From the IMG/VR virus record IMGVR_UViG_2529292719_000021, positions 1-6,341 of that record: a DNA stretch of 6,341 bases, one strand, 5' to 3'. Made by a program: the position numbers and the translations under genes. Each line of letters opens with the position of its first letter. Position 1 is the first letter of the stretch. A model generated the notes under the pieces. The model was not told the DNA's origin and searched no databases. It saw only the letters and a program-made list of their open reading frames with translations. This DNA is from a virus. Lineage: Duplodnaviria > Heunggongvirae > Uroviricota > Caudoviricetes. Of this stretch, positions 1 to 6,341 are shown piece after piece.

Positions 1-56
1 GGTATCCGTTCTGCTGAAGTGTCATGGCGTTGATTTTACGGTGACTCTTCGACAGT

Positions 57-83
57 GAAAAGAAAAAAGGCCGCAGAGCGGCC
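57..83 (-). terminator. Rho-independent terminator closing the minus-strand repressor-int-cargo transcription unit
   Basis: Perfect 6-bp GC stem GGCCGC/GCGGCC with 3-nt loop at 69..83; on the minus strand it is followed by a U-run (plus-strand A-run 57..68). Lies about 110 bp downstream of the stop of the 193..759 gene. Confidence 0.6.
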
Positions 84-192
84 ATAATCACATTCAAAAA
101 TCAACAAGTTAAATAATTATCAATAACTTACAGACACACAAAAACACAGTCAACCACAACAAGTAACAGTGATGTGGTCACTTTGTGGATCA

Positions 193-759
193 TCAGCCAA
201 CAAATTTTGCAATGAAATACGTAGCCGCCGCTGTAAAAAGCGAAGTAAAGATGGCTATACACACAGGTATAATGATGCCACTCAACCGCCACTTCGTATT
301 ATCATCAACTTTGTCAAACCGCCGATTCATCTCATCCATAATCTTGTCAAAGCGTTTATCCATCGCTTCGGCAATCTCCCCCTTCAGGCTGTTAATGTCT
401 GATTTGAGCTGCTCTTTCAGGTTAGCTGTATCAGATTTAAGCTCACCTTTCAGATTCGCAATATCGCATTTAAGCTCACCTTTCAGATGTGCTATGTCTG
501 CTTTGAGTTCACCTTTCACCTCACCAACATCGGCTTTAGTTGAGAGGTTTGTAGTGCGTTCAGCAAGCGTCGCAAGGTCGTTTCTTGTTAGCGATAAATC
601 ACCTTCGAGCCGCTCAATTCGCCTTTCAAGTTTATCTGACATTCCGCCTCCACTACTGCCGCCATCGCCACCATGATAAAGCACATCACGCTCAGAATGC
701 GACACACTACCTGCTGAATTACCGAAAAGATTTCTTGCTACATTACCCATTATCACCAT
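193..759 (-). CDS. Tail-anchored membrane protein with 11-residue (hendecad) tandem repeats and a single C-terminal transmembrane helix; function unknown
   Basis: ORF of 188 aa. Contains repeats VGEVKGELKAD / IAHLKGELKCD / IANLKGELKSD / TANLKEQLKSD, then RFDKIMDEMNRRFDKVDDNTKW, then a hydrophobic stretch GIIIPVCIAIFTSLFTAAATYFIA at the C-terminus. Start is ambiguous: the ATG at 759 overlaps the upstream gene by 17 nt, while an internal ATG at 642 (MSDKLERR...) is preceded by GGAGG. The antisense plus-strand translation is Ser-rich low complexity, so minus is taken as the coding strand. Confidence 0.6.
   Translation of the reverse strand: MVIMGNVARNLFGNSAGSVSHSERDVLYHGGDGGSSGGGMSDKLERRIERLEGDLSLTRNDLATLAERTTNLSTKADVGEVKGELKADIAHLKGELKCDIANLKGELKSDTANLKEQLKSDINSLKGEIAEAMDKRFDKIMDEMNRRFDKVDDNTKWRLSGIIIPVCIAIFTSLFTAAATYFIAKFVG
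403..534 (-). repeat. Four contiguous 33-bp tandem repeats, in frame, inside the 193..759 CDS
   Basis: Plus-strand units at 403..435, 436..468, 469..501 and 502..534 (TTTGAGCTGCTCTTTCAGGTTAGCTGTATCAGA / TTTAAGCTCACCTTTCAGATTCGCAATATCGCA / TTTAAGCTCACCTTTCAGATGTGCTATGTCTGC / TTTGAGTTCACCTTTCACCTCACCAACATCGGC), with degenerate copies on both sides. Each unit encodes one 11-aa repeat. Confidence 0.85.
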
Positions 760-1243
760 CCTGCGCTTTGTCTTTCTCCAACCACTTCAGCACCGCAGAC
801 GTACGATAAAGGCTCAGGTAACCACAATTCAGGCAATGCAGCGTGTAATAAGTTTTGCGCATATCAGGTATGCTCTTAACATCACCCAAAAAAGTATAAG
901 ATACATAATGCTTTATGTTCTCTTTAATTAACTCACTCTGCTCCTCCAGGGGTAGATTGTTAAAATTTTCTGGTTTCTTATTTTTATCCCAGCAAAGATC
1001 CATACTTTCAGGAACAGATAATCGCGACGATCCACATGAAGGGCAGACACTGGAGACCCCCTTCTCAGACAAGAAACGGAAGAAGATTTCTGGCGTAATC
1101 TCCATCAGCCGCTCTTTATGTTTTTTGACACGACTCATCGACTTCTTATTGATTTCATCAGCTTCTTCTTTGCATTTATCTTCTATATATTTCGATAGTA
1201 AATAGTCATATAACTCTTTTTTTGTAGGTTTTTTTATTTCCAT
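743..1243 (-). CDS. Lys/Glu-rich protein with two distant CxxC pairs (possible split zinc ribbon); function unknown
   Basis: ORF of 166 aa. CPSC at residues 67-70 and CLNC at 146-149, preceded by His. ATG at 1243..1241 sits 2 nt after the integrase stop (TAA at 1248..1246), with GGAGG 9 nt upstream inside the int 3' end, indicating co-transcription with int. Low GC, roughly 33-43% by hand count on sampled 120-nt stretches. Confidence 0.6.
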   Translation of the reverse strand: MEIKKPTKKELYDYLLSKYIEDKCKEEADEINKKSMSRVKKHKERLMEITPEIFFRFLSEKGVSSVCPSCGSSRLSVPESMDLCWDKNKKPENFNNLPLEEQSELIKENIKHYVSYTFLGDVKSIPDMRKTYYTLHCLNCGYLSLYRTSAVLKWLEKDKAQDGDNG

Positions 1244-1245
1244 AG

Positions 1246-2223
1246 TTACATTCCTCCCAAGGGATTAAACCTCACCGCATCCTGCAAGTAATCCGGCGCA
1301 AGATGGGCATAAATCATCGTTGTCTGAATCTTTGCGTGCCCCAGAATTTTCTGGAGCGTCAGAATATTGCCGCCGTTCATCATGAAATGACTGGCGAAGG
1401 TGTGGCGCAGCGCATGAACAGCCTGGCCGTCAGGAACATCAGGTGCGACCGTTTTGATGACATCGCGAACCAATGAATAATCCAGCGTCGGAAACACCAG
1501 TTTCCCGCCCCGTTTTTTGATCTTTTCAAACAGGCTTTCAGAAATAGGAACGGTACGGTTTTTGCTGTTCTTCGTTTTTGAAAAAGTGATTCGACAATGA
1601 AGAACACGGCGCTGCTCCAGTGCCGCTACCTCGCCCCATCGCGCCCCGGTCGACAGAAGGATTTCGACGGCCAGCCGTTCATCGGGATTTTCAGCCAGTG
1701 CATCCAGCAACTGAACACATTCAGACTTACTCAGATATCCCATTTCACGCTCGTTAACCTTCATTCCTTTAAGGCCTTGAACGGGGTTATCGTTAAGAAA
1801 ATGGCCGGATGAGATGAGTGCGGTAAACATCGCGCTTAACGCCCCAATCTCTCGATTTATGGTGCTGGGCTGTATCCCCTGCTCTATCCTGGACACACGT
1901 AGCTCGGTGAGCATCGTTGTATTAAGTTTATGCACGCACGGGTCATCCATTGCCTCACTCAAGCGCAGCAATTTAAGGCGCGTGTTATGCCCTGACTTCA
2001 TTAGCTGGCCGTGGTATTTCCACCACAAGTCAATAAGCACTGACAGCGGACGGCGATCAATGGAGTTTCCTTTCCACTCATTGTTATGCTGTTGCGCCAG
2101 CACCCACCGCTCATATAAAACTGCATCCGATTTCGTTTTAAATTTTTTGCGAATGCGTTTGCCTTTACGCCCCTCAGGACGCATGTCAAGAAGATACCCT
2201 CCCGGAATTGATTTTATGCTCAT
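1246..2223 (-). CDS. int: Tyrosine site-specific integrase, P2-Int-like family
   Basis: Translation from the internal ATG at 2223: MSIKSIPGGYLLDMRPEGRKGKRIRKKFKTKSDA... Carries the recombinase boxes STGARWGE, HALRHTFASHFMMNGG and LGHAKIQTTMIYAHLAP (catalytic Tyr). The N-terminal pattern matches what I recall of P2 Int. The ORF-track start at 2373 would overlap the upstream repressor, so 2223 is preferred. Confidence 0.9.
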   Translation of the reverse strand: MSIKSIPGGYLLDMRPEGRKGKRIRKKFKTKSDAVLYERWVLAQQHNNEWKGNSIDRRPLSVLIDLWWKYHGQLMKSGHNTRLKLLRLSEAMDDPCVHKLNTTMLTELRVSRIEQGIQPSTINREIGALSAMFTALISSGHFLNDNPVQGLKGMKVNEREMGYLSKSECVQLLDALAENPDERLAVEILLSTGARWGEVAALEQRRVLHCRITFSKTKNSKNRTVPISESLFEKIKKRGGKLVFPTLDYSLVRDVIKTVAPDVPDGQAVHALRHTFASHFMMNGGNILTLQKILGHAKIQTTMIYAHLAPDYLQDAVRFNPLGGM

Positions 2224-2272
2224 TCGTGAAGCCCCAGCGTTACAAGACCACCATGCCCCCAGCGTTCCATGA

Positions 2273-2584
2273 TTAGCCGGGCTGTGTGCCAGTCTTGCGG
2301 GATTTTTGAGAAGACGATGTGTTTTCTGGCCCATCAGGGGAGAGAGAAGGACTGATCTGCCCAGCAGCCTCATTTGTTTCGTTACTCATCAACCACGTAG
2401 TGTATTTTTTAAATTCCGGGTGCATTGTGATTTTCAGTAAAACCTCCGTTCCCACACCTCGAATACCAGTCTCGTATTGCTTAACCGTACCAACCGCAAT
2501 ACCTATTGAATCCGCGAACTTTGCCTGACTAAGCCCCTCAGATTCTCGAATTGCTTTTAGCTTCTTTGATATCTCTATTGACAT
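2273..2584 (-). CDS. HTH immunity repressor (P2 C-like / XRE-type), upstream of and co-oriented with int
   Basis: Translation from the ATG at 2584..2582: MSIEISKKLKAIRESEGLSQAKFADSIGIAVGTVKQYETG..., a helix-turn-helix followed by FKKYTTWLMSNETNEAAGQISP, resembling the recalled C-terminal motif of P2 C. AGGTG lies 7 nt upstream. The repressor-then-int order on one strand with a divergent early operon matches P2/186 organisation. Confidence 0.7.
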   Translation of the reverse strand: MSIEISKKLKAIRESEGLSQAKFADSIGIAVGTVKQYETGIRGVGTEVLLKITMHPEFKKYTTWLMSNETNEAAGQISPSLSPDGPENTSSSQKSRKTGTQPG

Positions 2585-2679
2585 GGTGTGCACCTGAATA
2601 CTATATTGGTTATCAGTTGAGTACCACTTGACGCTACAAAGAGCCACAAATAGCACCAGATTGAATAGGTTATCACACC
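2585..2679. promoter_or_regulatory. Divergent promoter/operator region between the repressor and the early operon (Pc/Pe-like switch)
   Basis: 95-bp intergenic region between divergent genes. Direct repeats ATTGGTTATCAG (2605..2616) and ATAGGTTATCAC (2665..2676) share the core GGTTATCA. Plus-strand TTGACG at 2628..2633 is a possible -35; minus-strand TATAGT (complement of 2600..2605) is a possible -10 for the repressor transcript. Confidence 0.5.
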
Positions 2680-2958
2680 ATGGCAAAAGTCCTTAACACA
2701 TACGAACAAGCGGATTTTGAGCGTTTGGCGGCGTTCTACCCATACCGTAATGAACATGGGCTACCGGTACTTGAAGAAAGCCTAGAGGATTATGCGAAAC
2801 GCACAAATCAAAGCATTCTCGCTGTAAGAAGGCAGGCTGATAGATCGGTAATTCCCGTTACTCAAGAAGGAAGAAACACAAAACGCAAAGTAAATCTCTT
2901 CGCAATTTTCCTGAAAACCATCAGAAACGCAGAGAAATACGTGCAGATGACAAAATAA
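2680..2958 (+). CDS. Cox/Apl-like small early protein (putative excisionase and switch regulator)
   Basis: 92-aa basic ORF, first gene of the operon divergent from the repressor; position and size match P2 Cox / 186 Apl. The role is inferred from position, not from sequence similarity. Confidence 0.45.
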   Translation: MAKVLNTYEQADFERLAAFYPYRNEHGLPVLEESLEDYAKRTNQSILAVRRQADRSVIPVTQEGRNTKRKVNLFAIFLKTIRNAEKYVQMTK

Positions 2959-2972
2959 CGAGGTGTCATTTT

Positions 2973-3311
2973 ATGCTGAAGCAACGCCGTAATTTTTGTA
3001 CCGGAACAGAACGCCACGCTAACCGTTTCACTACCAGTGCATCACGCAGCAACATCCGCTACAGCCTGAGTGATACACACGCAACGCCGGATGGCTACCC
3101 AGTAAAACAAATCGGCGAGCACGCCTGGCTGATTGAGAAAGCTGGAATCGTGATCCACAAATGCCCACGCAATCCGTTTACCGGAAACCGCATTTTTGCT
3201 CTAAGCAGTGGCGACAATCAGTTCGGGCAGGATTTCACATTATACGAAGCACTTCGCACGGTTGATCGTCTGCTTCGCGGGCAAAGTTTTATTAAACAGG
3301 CTGATTTATAA
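2973..3311 (+). CDS. Hypothetical early protein
   Basis: 112-aa ORF; GAGGTG sits 7 nt upstream of the ATG; starts 14 nt after the previous stop. Confidence 0.5.
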   Translation: MLKQRRNFCTGTERHANRFTTSASRSNIRYSLSDTHATPDGYPVKQIGEHAWLIEKAGIVIHKCPRNPFTGNRIFALSSGDNQFGQDFTLYEALRTVDRLLRGQSFIKQADL

Positions 3312-3321
3312 CAGGTGCTTT

Positions 3322-3609
3322 ATGACCAAAGACCATGCACAAGGTGTATTTATCCGTTTTATTGATTTTCGCGGTGAACTGTTATTACGTGCATCCGCTA
3401 TTGACGGAGTGACTCCGGCGGGTAAAAACGGAGCCGACGAAGCCACTTACGTTTATCTGAACGGCACGCGACTGCTTGTGGAACTTCCGTACCAGACCGT
3501 ACGAGAAATCATTAGCGAAGCTGAAAAGGCACGCCAGGTTAATGGCGATGAACCCTATATCGAAATTATTTGTATGGATTCAGAAGCTGAAATACAGAAA
3601 GCAGATTAA
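3322..3609 (+). CDS. Hypothetical early protein
   Basis: Track ORF 3208..3609 trimmed to the internal ATG at 3322 (MTKDHAQGVF...), which follows the previous stop at 3311 and has AGGTG upstream. The longer form would overlap the upstream gene by about 100 nt. Confidence 0.5.
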   Translation: MTKDHAQGVFIRFIDFRGELLLRASAIDGVTPAGKNGADEATYVYLNGTRLLVELPYQTVREIISEAEKARQVNGDEPYIEIICMDSEAEIQKAD

Positions 3610-3617
3610 AGGGCGTT

Positions 3618-3863
3618 GTGATGGGCAAAGAATATAAAACTCTCATTAACAAAGCACTTGAGCGTTTTTATTTTCGCTTAAGTGCATCAGGCGCTCATGC
3701 TGAACGTGCGGCCCGTGACTCATTGACCAGAGCAATCCGAAGTCTGTATGACGTGGCTTTTTACGCTGATGATCTGGATGCACTTAACGAACTTTCCGAG
3801 CTAATCTGTGCCGCAGAATGCGGGGAACATATTGAACCGTATAAGCTGGGGAATATCGCATGA
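3618..3863 (+). CDS. Hypothetical early protein
   Basis: 81-aa ORF. The track starts at GTG 3618; the adjacent ATG at 3621 is the more likely start. Its stop overlaps the next start (ATGA). Confidence 0.5.
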   Translation: MMGKEYKTLINKALERFYFRLSASGAHAERAARDSLTRAIRSLYDVAFYADDLDALNELSELICAAECGEHIEPYKLGNIA

Positions 3864-3973
3864 GTATATTTATCTCATGGCTTGTTCTGATTATTTCTGT
3901 GGCCTGCGCCATTGGGATTATGCGAATTATTCATTCAGTAAAAAAGATTGAACGCTTTTTCACTGGCGAATAA
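3860..3973 (+). CDS. Small hydrophobic peptide (37 aa), putative single-pass membrane protein
   Basis: ATG at 3860 overlaps the upstream stop (ATGA). Translation MSIFISWLVLIISVACAIGIMRIIHSVKKIERFFTGE has a hydrophobic core followed by a basic tail. Absent from the ORF track, presumably because of size. Confidence 0.35.
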   Translation: MSIFISWLVLIISVACAIGIMRIIHSVKKIERFFTGE

Positions 3974-4059
3974 CAGAGCAAATAAAACCACAGGTTAAAT
4001 AAGAAAATGTAAAAACAATCCGCATTCGCGGAGGTATTCGCATACGCCAAGGAGGCGTA

Positions 4060-4263
4060 ATGGCAATTAAGCATTTTCCTGTCGTTCGTTTTACCTCCAG
4101 AGGACGTGAATACGAAGTCGACGAACGCCTGATTACCACAATCGACAAACACCGTTCAGAAAAGGATGCACATCACATCTATCTCACTGACGGCACTTAC
4201 TTCTGCGCCACGAATGTGGTGCAGGTGAACCTTATCCGACAGGTACAGGAGTCACGCAGATGA
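4060..4263 (+). CDS. Hypothetical early protein
   Basis: 67-aa ORF with a strong Shine-Dalgarno AAGGAGG at 4049..4055. Confidence 0.55.
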   Translation: MAIKHFPVVRFTSRGREYEVDERLITTIDKHRSEKDAHHIYLTDGTYFCATNVVQVNLIRQVQESRR

Positions 4264-4505
4264 CCATTCTGGATTATATCGCTGCCAATCCGGGGTGTAG
4301 CGGTGGAGAAATCGCCGCAGCACTGAATACCCCAACCACAGCCATTAATGCGGAGTTACGCCGACTCTGGCGCAGCGGTTCAGTCATAAGAAAAGAGCGC
4401 AAAACAGGCGGTCGCTTTTCTTACCAGATAAACCCGATGCCGTTCGGGTGCGGCAATCCACTTACCAACATGTTTAACCAGCTACTGAAGGAAGCCAGAG
4501 CATGA
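4260..4505 (+). CDS. Small putative winged-helix DNA-binding protein
   Basis: 81-aa ORF; ATGA overlap with the upstream stop. The N-terminus MTILDYIAANPGCSGGEIAAALN... has the look of a wHTH regulator; this is weak pattern recognition only. Confidence 0.5.
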   Translation: MTILDYIAANPGCSGGEIAAALNTPTTAINAELRRLWRSGSVIRKERKTGGRFSYQINPMPFGCGNPLTNMFNQLLKEARA

Positions 4506-4801
4506 GCGCCATCAACCACCAGGAATTACGCGAACTGGCAACTGACCTTCAACGAATGGCAACGCATCAAAAATTACTGGCGTTTCGCGCAATGCTCTCG
4601 CCGTCTGCTGTGCTGGCACTGCTGGATGAGCTGGAGCACGCCAAAACCACGGCTCCTGCCATTCGCCTGACGCTCCATCATGAAATCGCTGATTTCTGCG
4701 CAACGCTGGGGGCACCTGGCGAACCGGAAACGCCGGAAGCAATGCAGCAAGAGCTGCTGCAACGCATTGACAAGGTTTTTGATTTTTTTCTGAACCAGTA
4801 A
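4502..4801 (+). CDS. Hypothetical acidic early protein
   Basis: 99-aa ORF; ATGA overlap with the upstream stop; last gene before the 322-bp non-coding region. Confidence 0.55.
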   Translation: MSAINHQELRELATDLQRMATHQKLLAFRAMLSPSAVLALLDELEHAKTTAPAIRLTLHHEIADFCATLGAPGEPETPEAMQQELLQRIDKVFDFFLNQ

Positions 4802-4923
4802 GAAACCAGAACATGCACACACAAAAAAACCGCTTGCCATGCCGCAATCGGTCAGGTTACATTTCCGCTGCACCTCATAAAACGGGTGCCGGGATTCTCA
4901 ACCCGATACAGAGCAAAGCGCAT

Positions 4924-4945
4924 AACCGCGCCAGCGGTTTTTTTG
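4924..4945 (+). terminator. Candidate intrinsic terminator
   Basis: AACCGC-GCCA-GCGGTT hairpin (6-bp stem) followed by TTTTTTT at 4939..4945, about 120 nt after the stop at 4801. Confidence 0.4.
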
Positions 4946-4956
4946 TGCGTACTGTA

Positions 4957-4985
4957 TTGCCACGTCTTTTTCGCGTCAGAATTAT
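4957..4985 (+). promoter_or_regulatory. Candidate sigma70 promoter for the downstream genes
   Basis: TTGCCA (4957..4962), 17-nt spacer, AATTAT (4980..4985). A transcript from here would carry a leader of about 130 nt containing a UUCG-loop hairpin (about 5000..5018). Confidence 0.3.
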
Positions 4986-5123
4986 GGCGGGGCGTACGGG
5001 GCCGACTTCGGTCGGGCCGGATTCTTTGCTCTCCGGTGTTGAGAACCCTGTACGTCTCGCCACCCCGAGATTCTCAACTCTGGATGGTGAGCTATTTCTA
5101 TCACCGAGCAAAGAGGCCACACC

Positions 5124-5354
5124 ATGGCAAACCGCAAACAACAGCGCGCATACGCTGCGCGTCGTCACATCCAGACTGAAATCAACCGCAGACTTTCCCG
5201 CGCATCACGCGTCGCGCAAATCATGCACATCAATATGCTGCATGAGCGCAGCCACGCACTATCAAACATTTATTCCGCCTCTGTTTTCAGCTATCTGGCG
5301 GATGATCTGCACGAGCTTCAACAGCTCATCCAGCAGCAAAACAAACTCCATTAA
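5124..5354 (+). CDS. Small basic hypothetical protein
   Basis: 76-aa ORF; AAGAGG sits 7 nt upstream. Arg-rich N-terminus MANRKQQRAYAARRHIQTEINRR. Confidence 0.45.
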   Translation: MANRKQQRAYAARRHIQTEINRRLSRASRVAQIMHINMLHERSHALSNIYSASVFSYLADDLHELQQLIQQQNKLH

Positions 5355-5426
5355 TTCCTGTTCCGGGCCTTTCCTGCACCTTGCGGCGGGAGGCCTTCGC
5401 ACATCTGTAACAAGAGGATTGCCGCA

Positions 5427-5792
5427 ATGATTCTCGCCAACGACTTTCTTGAATACCTGCTCAACACAGAGCGTGATCTTGCCGCTCGCGTGCGTGATCG
5501 TTATGACATGTACCTGAAATCCCTGCCTGTACCGCAGCTCGCTGACGGAAAGATTGTTATTGATGGTCGCTACATGATTGACAGCCACGAGGGAAATTAC
5601 AGGCTTTACCGCATTGAAGGTGGCACCCCGTCCGTTATTGGCATTTACCAGCGCCCATCCTCTGCAATCGTCGATGTGATTGCCGACAGCATCCGCATCA
5701 CACATCGCCATGCCGACACAGAAGACACCGTGCTGGAAATTCAGCGGCTGGCTACAGTCTGCCGCGACACCCTGAATGGCATGACGAAGTAA
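5427..5792 (+). CDS. Hypothetical protein
   Basis: 121-aa ORF; AAGAGG sits 9 nt upstream; only 6 nt before the next start. Confidence 0.5.
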   Translation: MILANDFLEYLLNTERDLAARVRDRYDMYLKSLPVPQLADGKIVIDGRYMIDSHEGNYRLYRIEGGTPSVIGIYQRPSSAIVDVIADSIRITHRHADTEDTVLEIQRLATVCRDTLNGMTK

Positions 5793-5798
5793 ATCACT

Positions 5799-6341
5799 AT
5801 GACGGCAGAGTACATCAGGGACTGGCAACAACCGCGCCACGCAGTGGGGCGTGAAGGAACGGGGATCCCCGCTCCTGAATCCGCGCTTTCCTCCTGGCTG
5901 GATGCCTACCGGGCAGAGAACGAGCGCCGCCAGGAAATGGCTGATGCGGCGTTCTCCGCCACGCCGCTGGGCAACCTGATTAATAAAAGCCTGGACGCAC
6001 AGGAAAAACAGGACAAAACCATCACACTGGCAGGAGACGCCAGAAAGCAGGCACGCGGCGCGGTGGATGAAGCCATGGCCTCGCTGCGCCTGCTGCCGTC
6101 CTATCTGCGCGATCCGCTTATTCGCCACCTCTCCTTCCTGCGCAAAAAACAGGAATCTGACCGCCAGAAAGGTAAAAAGAACCAGCAGGCTGAACGCTAC
6201 GCGCGCGGGACCCTGCGCAAAATATTCGAACGTCTGGACCGCACCGACCACCGCTGGCTGACACCGGGTTATCGCGCCCTTGCCGGACGCGAACGCCTGG
6301 ATGATTTGCTTTACCTCCCGCAGCTCAACAAGCACCAGATA
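5799..6341 (+). CDS. 5' part of a larger ORF running off the window; possibly a P2 gpA-like replication initiation protein
   Basis: Open frame with no stop from the ATG at 5799 to the window end (181 codons, checked by hand). Not in the ORF track because it is unterminated. The motifs RHAVGREG and LPSYLRDPLIRHLSFLRKK resemble what I recall of the P2 A N-terminus, and the position after the small early genes fits. The family call is tentative. Confidence 0.45.
   Translation, partial: MTAEYIRDWQQPRHAVGREGTGIPAPESALSSWLDAYRAENERRQEMADAAFSATPLGNLINKSLDAQEKQDKTITLAGDARKQARGAVDEAMASLRLLPSYLRDPLIRHLSFLRKKQESDRQKGKKNQQAERYARGTLRKIFERLDRTDHRWLTPGYRALAGRERLDDLLYLPQLNKHQI

Follow-up and report, generated by a model that had tools for sequence, protein, structure and literature searches.

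In-frame 33-bp repeats in a P2-like prophage gene probably encode the hendecad coiled-coil stalk of a small membrane-anchored protein

The DUF1640/CCDC90-like family includes the mitochondrial proteins MCUR1 and CCDC90B, yeast Put6 and Put7 as well as many bacterial membrane proteins. In prokaryotes as well as in mitochondria, the beta-layer signature [aliphatic]-A-T-K-[polar]-[DE] is prominent at the start of the C-terminal DUF1640 stalk, and 11 residues correspond to three turns in a hendecad coiled coil (Hartmann et al., PMC4786415). The bdr genes of Borrelia are borne on cp32 prophages, and their products are associated with the inner membrane and made during infection, with no function having been found (PMC10016077, PMC3303823, PMC2525819). 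The gene bdrT features about nine repeats in strain B31 and about six in a 99.4% identical ortholog, and the repeat number is stable in culture (PMC10016077, PMC3303823, PMC2525819). Here, we describe a 6,341-nucleotide stretch of viral DNA (IMG/VR record IMGVR_UViG_2529292719_000021, positions 1 to 6,341, Caudoviricetes), in the following called the window, in which a minus-strand gene at 193-759, the stalk gene, contains a run of 33-bp repeats and encodes a protein that resembles both of these groups.

The 33-bp repeats very likely encode the hendecad coiled-coil stalk of a small tail-anchored inner-membrane protein of a P2-like prophage, which would serve the lysogen as an accessory spacer or scaffold. 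Support is good for the structural side of this proposal, and the expression, topology and cellular role of the protein are suggested by analogy. The protein would be laid out as a variable N-terminal peptide, a glycine-rich linker, a helix, the motif LSTKAD, a hendecad helix of about 74 residues, a tryptophan and a transmembrane helix. The corresponding features of the window are as follows, with model confidence given as predicted local distance difference test (pLDDT).

193-759, minus strand: gene for the tail-anchored coiled-coil protein, long open reading frame (ORF) of 188 amino acids, from the ORF list and codon-position substitutions
193-642, minus strand: short form of 149 amino acids, starting at Met40 (642-640) after GGAGG (651-647), as in the RefSeq annotation of relatives
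643-672, minus strand: glycine-rich linker GGDGGSSGGG of the long form; such a linker occurs in all N-terminal variants
547-639, minus strand: N-terminal helix SDKLERRIERLEGDLSLTRNDLATLAERTTN, helical in the AlphaFold2 model (short-form residues 2-31, pLDDT 82-90)
529-546, minus strand: beta-layer motif L-S-T-K-A-D (long-form residues 72-77), which fits the DUF1640 signature and opens the stalk
511-543, minus strand: degenerate first unit STKADVGEVKG, with 14-20 of 33 bases in common with the core units
379-510, minus strand: four core hendecads, delimited as codon-phase units, continuous in the model helix (pLDDT 92-96) and one to six in number among homologues
313-378, minus strand: two degenerate C-terminal units, EIAEAMDKRFD (378-346) and KIMDEMNRRFD (345-313), with 22 of 33 bases in common
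196-312, minus strand: juxtamembrane KVDDNTKWRLS and C-terminal transmembrane helix GIIIPVCIAIFTSLFTAAATYFIAKFVG, with the invariant W118 and model helix 114-148
193-195, minus strand: stop codon of the stalk gene

Tandem Repeats Finder reported a period-33 array at 414-518 with 3.2 copies, 79% matches and no indels (score 119). In the codon phase of the minus strand, the four core units lie at 510-478, 477-445, 444-412 and 411-379 and encode, in this order, ELKADIAHLKG, ELKCDIANLKG, ELKSDTANLKE and QLKSDINSLKG. The self-identity amounts to 0.67 at lag 33 and 0.64 at lag 66, with other lags at roughly 0.13-0.38. At lag 33, 72 of 99 positions matched, whereas 2000 codon shuffles matched at 35.5 positions on average and never at more than 48. 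The array is thus real, in frame and far beyond chance. A general repeat-family finder applied to the window returned no family for it. An earlier note on the window, written from the letters alone, had described tandem in-frame 33-bp repeats with degenerate flanking copies, and both are borne out, one such copy lying upstream and two downstream of the core. The interval given there, 403-534, captures the array but is shifted by 24 nt against the codon phase, and the wording of near-identical units went too far, as the core units have 21-25 of 33 bases (64-76% DNA identity) and 6-9 of 11 residues in common in codon phase, and 20-26 of 33 bases in the phase of the note. The longest exact lag-33 repeat, computed by script, comprises 21 nt at 435-455. 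More than half of the base differences between units (37 of 64) fall on third codon positions and half of the differing codons are synonymous; the units are therefore old and held by selection on the protein.

The same holds between alleles, where substitutions concentrate at the third codon positions of the minus-strand frame, which also has the largest synonymous share. On the opposite strand, the array is spanned by an ORF of 163 amino acids at 185-676, which has a periodic pattern of its own (SPFR/SDLS). As a gene it was rejected, since the codon-position statistics identify this ORF as a shadow of the minus-strand frame. It could nevertheless be argued that the array acts through this plus-strand frame or at the DNA level, e.g., as integrase or IHF arm sites or as iterons, with the minus-strand protein repeat being incidental. 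The open opposite frame and the distance of only about 300-450 bp between the array and the prophage junction would be in line with this. Still, such a role is vanishingly improbable, as allele and unit changes alike follow the third positions of the minus-strand frame with its high synonymous share, and protein homologues are found in alpha-proteobacteria, Borrelia and Liberibacter phages in unrelated DNA context.

A search of 5.8 billion proteins yielded a homologue set of 56 relatives, in which the units were counted as the earlier note had suggested. Their number is not constant. In E. coli-type proteins, the segment from LSTKAD to AMDKRFD measures 27, 38, 49, 60, 71 or 82 residues, corresponding to 16 + 11n with n = 1-6, and steps of 11 residues also occur in Salmonella-type proteins. 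Near-identical proteins differ by one unit, e.g., forms of 170, 181 and 192 amino acids. At the DNA level, the prophage occupies an identical site in Salmonella strain s1, where the stalk gene is longer by an in-frame insertion of exactly 33 bp; the two copies of the unit agree at 30 of 33 bases. An E. coli allele (locus L004) together with related proteins shows a clean 33-bp gap within the degenerate RFDK units. The claim that unit number varies between strains in whole units is thus confirmed. Such changes would probably arise by slippage or unequal recombination among the imperfect 33-bp units. Gain or loss of a unit would leave the hendecad core register unchanged, as 11 residues make three hendecad turns, and this may be why only multiples of 33 bp are seen.

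A further reading would take the array as a contingency locus, at which slipped-strand mispairing brings about rapid, reversible changes and thereby switches the protein or modulates it among the cells of a population. Tandem, contiguous repeats of equal length, the exact 21-nt lag-33 repeat, the range of one to six units across homologues and the one fresh duplication in Salmonella are what such a locus would offer. Nevertheless, this reading is very improbable. The unit length is a multiple of three and therefore cannot switch the frame, and the units are diverged in the protein-constrained manner described above. Four units are present at 28 of 29 IMG/VR loci (five at the remaining one), and the stalk gene, carried by 39 of 5426 complete E. 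coli genomes, has alignment spans that fit four units in practically all 39. Likewise, the repeat number of the related bdr genes is stable in culture (PMC3303823). Highly identical repeats that shift a frame or promoter, together with length heterogeneity in close isolates, are the combination that marks a contingency locus and were not found here. From the original proposal, gain and loss of whole units in 11-residue steps stands, but frequent slippage that tunes the length finds weak backing in these counts.

Concerning the type of helix, the earlier note had named two possibilities, namely a 3-11 amphipathic helix lying flat on the membrane, as in apolipoproteins, perilipins and LEA proteins, with the unit number tuning the juxtamembrane length, or a right-handed coiled coil. 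Plotted on a helical wheel of 11/3 periodicity, every unit shows the order E D / L L I / K K / A G A/C/S H/N. Three of the 11 residues (L, L, I) thus form the non-polar stripe, which is bordered by acidic residues on one side and by basic ones on the other, with small or polar A/G/S/H residues opposite. At 11/3 residues per turn, the repeat core has a low hydrophobic moment of 0.19, its mean hydrophobicity being -0.13; the stalk in its entirety has a moment of 0.24, a value reached by 96 of 5000 shuffles. Judged from sequence, this wheel pattern corresponds to a coiled coil of parallel helices joined by salt bridges and not to a class-A surface-seeking helix. The surface helix draws some backing from the 11-residue periodicity and from several matches: the Pfam Apolipoprotein model matched the window protein at E = 1.6e-5 to 3.6e-5 as well as 123 of the best 139 short distant relatives introduced below, apolipoprotein A-IV was matched in the PDB at E ~2e-5, and a cluster member bears the name 'apolipoprotein A1/A4/E family protein' in one source. 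Yet the PF01442 score of 24-25 bits lies far below the cut-off of 90, and the apolipoprotein label was therefore rejected as shared 11-mer periodicity, not homology. A narrow non-polar face with a low moment, acidic and basic charges kept to separate flanks where a class-A helix would have basic residues along both borders, a beta-layer motif, itself a feature of coiled-coil stalks, ahead of the array and a best solved relative that is a three-chain entry of DUF1640 kind make a surface helix very improbable; the right-handed (hendecad) coiled coil is the reading that the evidence favours.

Structure prediction agrees with this. The AlphaFold2 run on a 21-sequence alignment (monomer, mean pLDDT 80.7) gave a helix at 2-31, a break at 32-35 (N-L-S-T), a helix at 36-109 that runs uninterrupted through the units, a second break and the membrane helix at 114-148. 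The 11-residue periodic helix adjoining a C-terminal transmembrane helix was thus correctly anticipated. The first break overlaps the first three residues of the beta-layer motif, of which K36 and D38, together with W118 ahead of the membrane helix, are the only invariant columns of the alignment (A1). The stalk helix of 74 residues would measure about 11 nm, or about 1.6 nm per unit. The hydrophobic tail makes up the final 27-28 residues of the protein. Within the membrane helix (window 214-279, minus strand), alleles differ by a 12-bp indel (four residues, TSLF), and alleles of the O26 and Salmonella type have a hydrophobic stretch of about 23 residues, compared to about 27 in the type of the window, O55:H7 and IMG/VR.

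The best Pfam family of the window protein is CCDC90-like (PF07798) with 25.6-26.6 bits (E = 6e-6 to 1e-5), and 19 of 21 close relatives match it with E-values down to 6.4e-12; RefSeq names close relatives 'DUF1640 domain-containing' or 'CCDC90 family' protein. Beside the beta-layer motif at residues 72-77, the hendecads, the model helices and the hydrophobic end provide the stalk and C-terminal membrane segment of DUF1640 proteins. The best PDB match, 6H9L (E = 1.3e-5), a bacterial-type member of the family, consists of three chains with a stalk of ATKEDIEALRK 11-mers. A family profile search of 1.84 billion representative proteins returned 3232 matches at E < 0.001. Among the best 139 short matches of these, 123 are CCDC90-like (best E = 4.1e-24), 111 have a C-terminal hydrophobic segment, 82 contain the strict beta-layer motif and 124 show periodicity at lag 11 or lag 22. 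The consensus of these distant relatives reads head ... ATKxD ... (ELKxDIAxLRx)n ... membrane helix, and a chromosomal homologue from Paracoccaceae has the canonical form with head domain. In the window protein, a single 30-residue helix precedes the beta-layer motif in the model. In an NCBIfam scan, the window protein had nothing but weak coiled-coil cross-matches, with no Bdr model among them. Matches in PADLOC (LmuB, ZorA and others) fell on long coiled-coil stretches and were read as composition, so that no defence family was assigned. In Liberibacter phages SC1 and SC2 and their relatives, a DUF1640 protein adjoins the primase gene, and SC1 gp26 (L006 3917-4294) is about 40% identical to the window protein over the stalk.

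In addition, tblastn against plasmids matched 21 Borrelia and Borreliella plasmids, the matched genes in the listed records being annotated as bdr. Alignment of the family profile with Bdr of Borrelia turcica by hhalign gave 97% probability (E = 1.1e-10) over 92 columns, including KNNKW and the membrane helix. Central in-frame direct repeats of strain-variable number combined with a C-terminal membrane anchor, as known from Bdr, are present in the window protein as well, and on B. turcica cp33 the order is integrase, small ORF and then bdr. By profile alignment, homology to Bdr holds at the superfamily level, and the window protein is, as far as its profile matches and motifs tell, a reduced, headless relative of the DUF1640/CCDC90-like and Bdr superfamily.

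The start codon of the stalk gene is ambiguous, with Met40 (642) in RefSeq versus 750. The ATG at 750-748 overlaps the stop codon of the upstream gene, hereafter the partner (ATGGGTAA, 750-743). The 149-residue short form is identical to P0238, an E. coli protein found on 66 contigs, and the linker DNA at 643-672 doubles as its ribosome-binding site. The long ORF begins at or over the stop codon of the partner, with a start codon, in every lineage examined, including the E. coli, Klebsiella and Providencia loci, and the N-terminal peptides are conserved as proteins across genera (MAYAKSEHGITLIRE, MAALKRDRGITLL, MSYAKGVQGVTPIR, VNKSIKDRDVTYM). In E. coli, Salmonella, Klebsiella and Providencia, the long form is open and start-bearing with protein-level similarity. 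A translationally coupled long form, possibly beside the short form, is therefore likely. The length of the glycine-rich linker varies: in the IMG/VR locus L018 it is expanded to (GGD)n, GGDGGDGGDGGDGGSSGGG, compared to GGDGGSSGGG in the window, and constitutes a second in-frame repeat of the stalk gene with a 9-bp unit.

The genomic surroundings place the stalk gene at the lysogeny end of a prophage. Positions 1-83 of the window match the btuC-ihfA spacer of K-12 without a difference, as far as the end of the ihfA terminator hairpin, and the sequence diverges from position 84 on. With the junction at about 84, no further prophage gene separates the stalk gene from the attachment junction. The following neighbouring features are involved.

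69-83, minus strand: terminator hairpin GGCCGCTCTGCGGCC with T-run, the host ihfA terminator at the prophage junction, from terminator scan and K-12 identity
743-1243, minus strand: partner of 166 amino acids with four conserved cysteines (CxxC ... CxxC), phrog_4293
1246-2373, minus strand: tyrosine integrase of the P2-like prophage (Pfam Int_N E = 2.1e-28, Phage_integrase E = 5.7e-20)
2273-2686, minus strand: helix-turn-helix (C/cI-type) repressor ORF (Pfam HTH_3 E = 2.1e-9), heading the run repressor-integrase-partner-stalk

The last prophage gene is now followed by the hairpin at 69-83, with btuC starting shortly beyond it, upstream of the window. The repressor, integrase, partner and stalk genes are co-directional with 2-nt spacing or overlap, the integrase stop lying 2 nt before the start of the partner gene. 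The same gene order at the same chromosomal site beside btuC is found in E. coli O26, O55:H7 and other strains as well as in Salmonella, and a 32-kb P2-like element of Klebsiella contains repressor, integrase, partner and stalk protein followed by tail genes. The other genes are P2-like as well (DUF4761, DUF4754, replication endonuclease, Ogr, gpD and tail sheath protein). The partner, which has homologues with about 30-60% identity in E. coli, Klebsiella and Providencia, lies upstream of the stalk gene at all 29 of the IMG/VR loci. Some RefSeq genomes carry no annotation for it and show instead an empty stretch of about 480 bp between integrase and stalk gene; the places concerned are L002 6587-7000 and the gap at L003 6480-6959. 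Its AlphaFold2 model (pLDDT 83) had no fold match. A tblastn search of the partner against phages and a megablast search against the phage collection returned no matches, and the related-locus search with the single stalk protein gave only two species-level genome loci.

These surroundings also bear on a resemblance to XhlA-type membrane proteins, which the earlier note had pointed out. XhlA belongs to the xhlA-xhlB-xlyA lysis cassette and acts together with a holin (PMC5589764). A small phage protein with a helix and a C-terminal membrane segment would suit such a lysis accessory role, and the C-terminal third gave weak matches to Pfam XhlA (E = 0.061) and phrog_1193 'hemolysin' (E = 6.8e-4). 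In the hidden Markov model (HMM) comparison, however, PF10779 scored 13.9 bits versus a cut-off of 34.7, 1 of 21 close relatives matched, and XhlA lay outside the top 25 families for the 139 distant relatives. Besides, the stalk gene shares its strand with the repressor, lies beside integrase and attachment site and has neither a holin nor an endolysin in its vicinity. The resemblance did not hold up, and a lysis function of this kind is most improbable.

Coming back to the membrane-anchored stalk, its hendecads would most likely assemble, by homology, into a parallel trimer in the cytoplasm. From its position as last gene and its co-directional packing with repressor, integrase and partner, the stalk gene would probably form a lysogen-expressed accessory (moron) pair with the partner gene. 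As analogy and gene packing suggest, the stalk may then be a rigid spacer or scaffold on the cytoplasmic side of the membrane, its length changing in whole units.

Several points weigh against this proposal. Concerning the structure, the model is a monomer, the parallel trimer being a prediction by homology, and the ELKxD units may be helical layers or beta-layers. A Foldseek comparison of the stalk model with the PDB gave one non-significant match (E = 7, Tcar0761 construct), a single long helix being uninformative in such a search. Concerning the family, the PF07798 score stays below the cut-off of 33.5 bits, the canonical head domain is missing, with only profile positions 69-166 of 175 being matched, and the E-values of the apolipoprotein model are comparable to the CCDC90-like ones. 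Concerning expression, transcription along with repressor and integrase is suggested by gene packing, and the promoter scan found no promoter on that strand. Concerning length, the four-unit allele dominates, and tuning by unit number is therefore at most occasional. Finally, a Providencia stuartii homologue of 107 amino acids (L010 4494-4817) consists of N-terminal peptide, glycine linker, one helix, AKKED, tryptophan and membrane helix without any hendecad, and the stalk is therefore dispensable for a role of anchor or N-terminal part. This minimal homologue still directly follows the four-cysteine partner, beside ogr.

A more specific reading would see in partner and stalk gene a conserved, translationally coupled module at the integrase end of P2-like phages in Enterobacterales, which is expressed in the lysogen from the transcript of repressor and integrase and acts at the cytoplasmic face of the inner membrane, e.g., in superinfection exclusion, defence or tethering of a phage or host factor, with the hendecad number setting a functional distance. 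Taken as a whole, this reading is unlikely. If true, it would open the Bdr proteins of Borrelia prophages to study through a tractable E. coli model.

Apart from the stalk gene, Rfam models matched isrK at 4870-4944 (plus strand, 62.8 bits) and C4 antisense RNA at 4980-5067 (plus strand, 78.5 bits), followed by an ORF of the 'Derepression protein' Pfam family at 5124-5354 (plus strand). Taken together, these elements resemble a cassette for immunity or derepression by antisense RNA in the style of P1/P7, placed here within an early region of P2-like type. In the closest E. coli prophage, only an 'ash family' remnant stands where the cassette would be.

The strain-variable unit number is typical of the DUF1640/Bdr family and not new. 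Bacterial DUF1640 and Borrelia Bdr proteins commonly have variable 11-residue units before a membrane anchor, and the repeat itself is accordingly ordinary. What the present analysis adds is, on the one hand, a correction, as the apolipoprotein-like and XhlA labels are artefacts of periodicity. On the other hand, it links enterobacterial prophage proteins, Bdr and the MCUR1/CCDC90B family through one stalk-and-anchor module, the prophage version of which is always paired with an uncharacterised four-cysteine partner adjoining the integrase. We know of no bacterial DUF1640/Bdr-type member with an established function. The E. coli P2-like pair, with its natural alleles of one to six units (none in Providencia), is therefore a convenient system for the role of the stalk and the question of its length.

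In comparison with known systems, the likeness to XhlA of the Bacillus PBSX-type cassettes is confined to a small phage protein with helix and C-terminal membrane segment, whereas XhlA is encoded in a lysis cassette with a holin partner and the window gene lies at the lysogeny end and has no significant HMM match. With the exchangeable apolipoproteins (PF01442, class-A 11/22-mers), the window protein has the 11-residue periodicity in common, which leads to weak HMM cross-matches, but it differs by its narrow stripe, coiled-coil charges, membrane anchor and beta-layer motif. The agreement is closer with the DUF1640/CCDC90-like proteins, in which likewise a beta-layer x-A/S-T-K-x-D opens a stalk of variable ELKxDIAxLRx-type 11-mers that ends in a C-terminal membrane helix. 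Unlike these, the window protein has a short variable peptide and a glycine-rich linker in place of the head of about 70 residues, its gene is prophage-borne and paired with a four-cysteine partner, and one homologue lacks hendecads. The Bdr proteins differ in that they keep a head-like N-terminal region, mix 11- and 7-residue spacings around TKID in their repeats and form large paralogous families within one cell. Nevertheless, they have in common with the window protein that they are prophage-borne, contain imperfect in-frame repeats of strain-variable yet short-term stable number and end in K-N/T-K-W and a membrane helix, and bdr of B. turcica cp33 follows an integrase and a small ORF just as the stalk gene does in the window.

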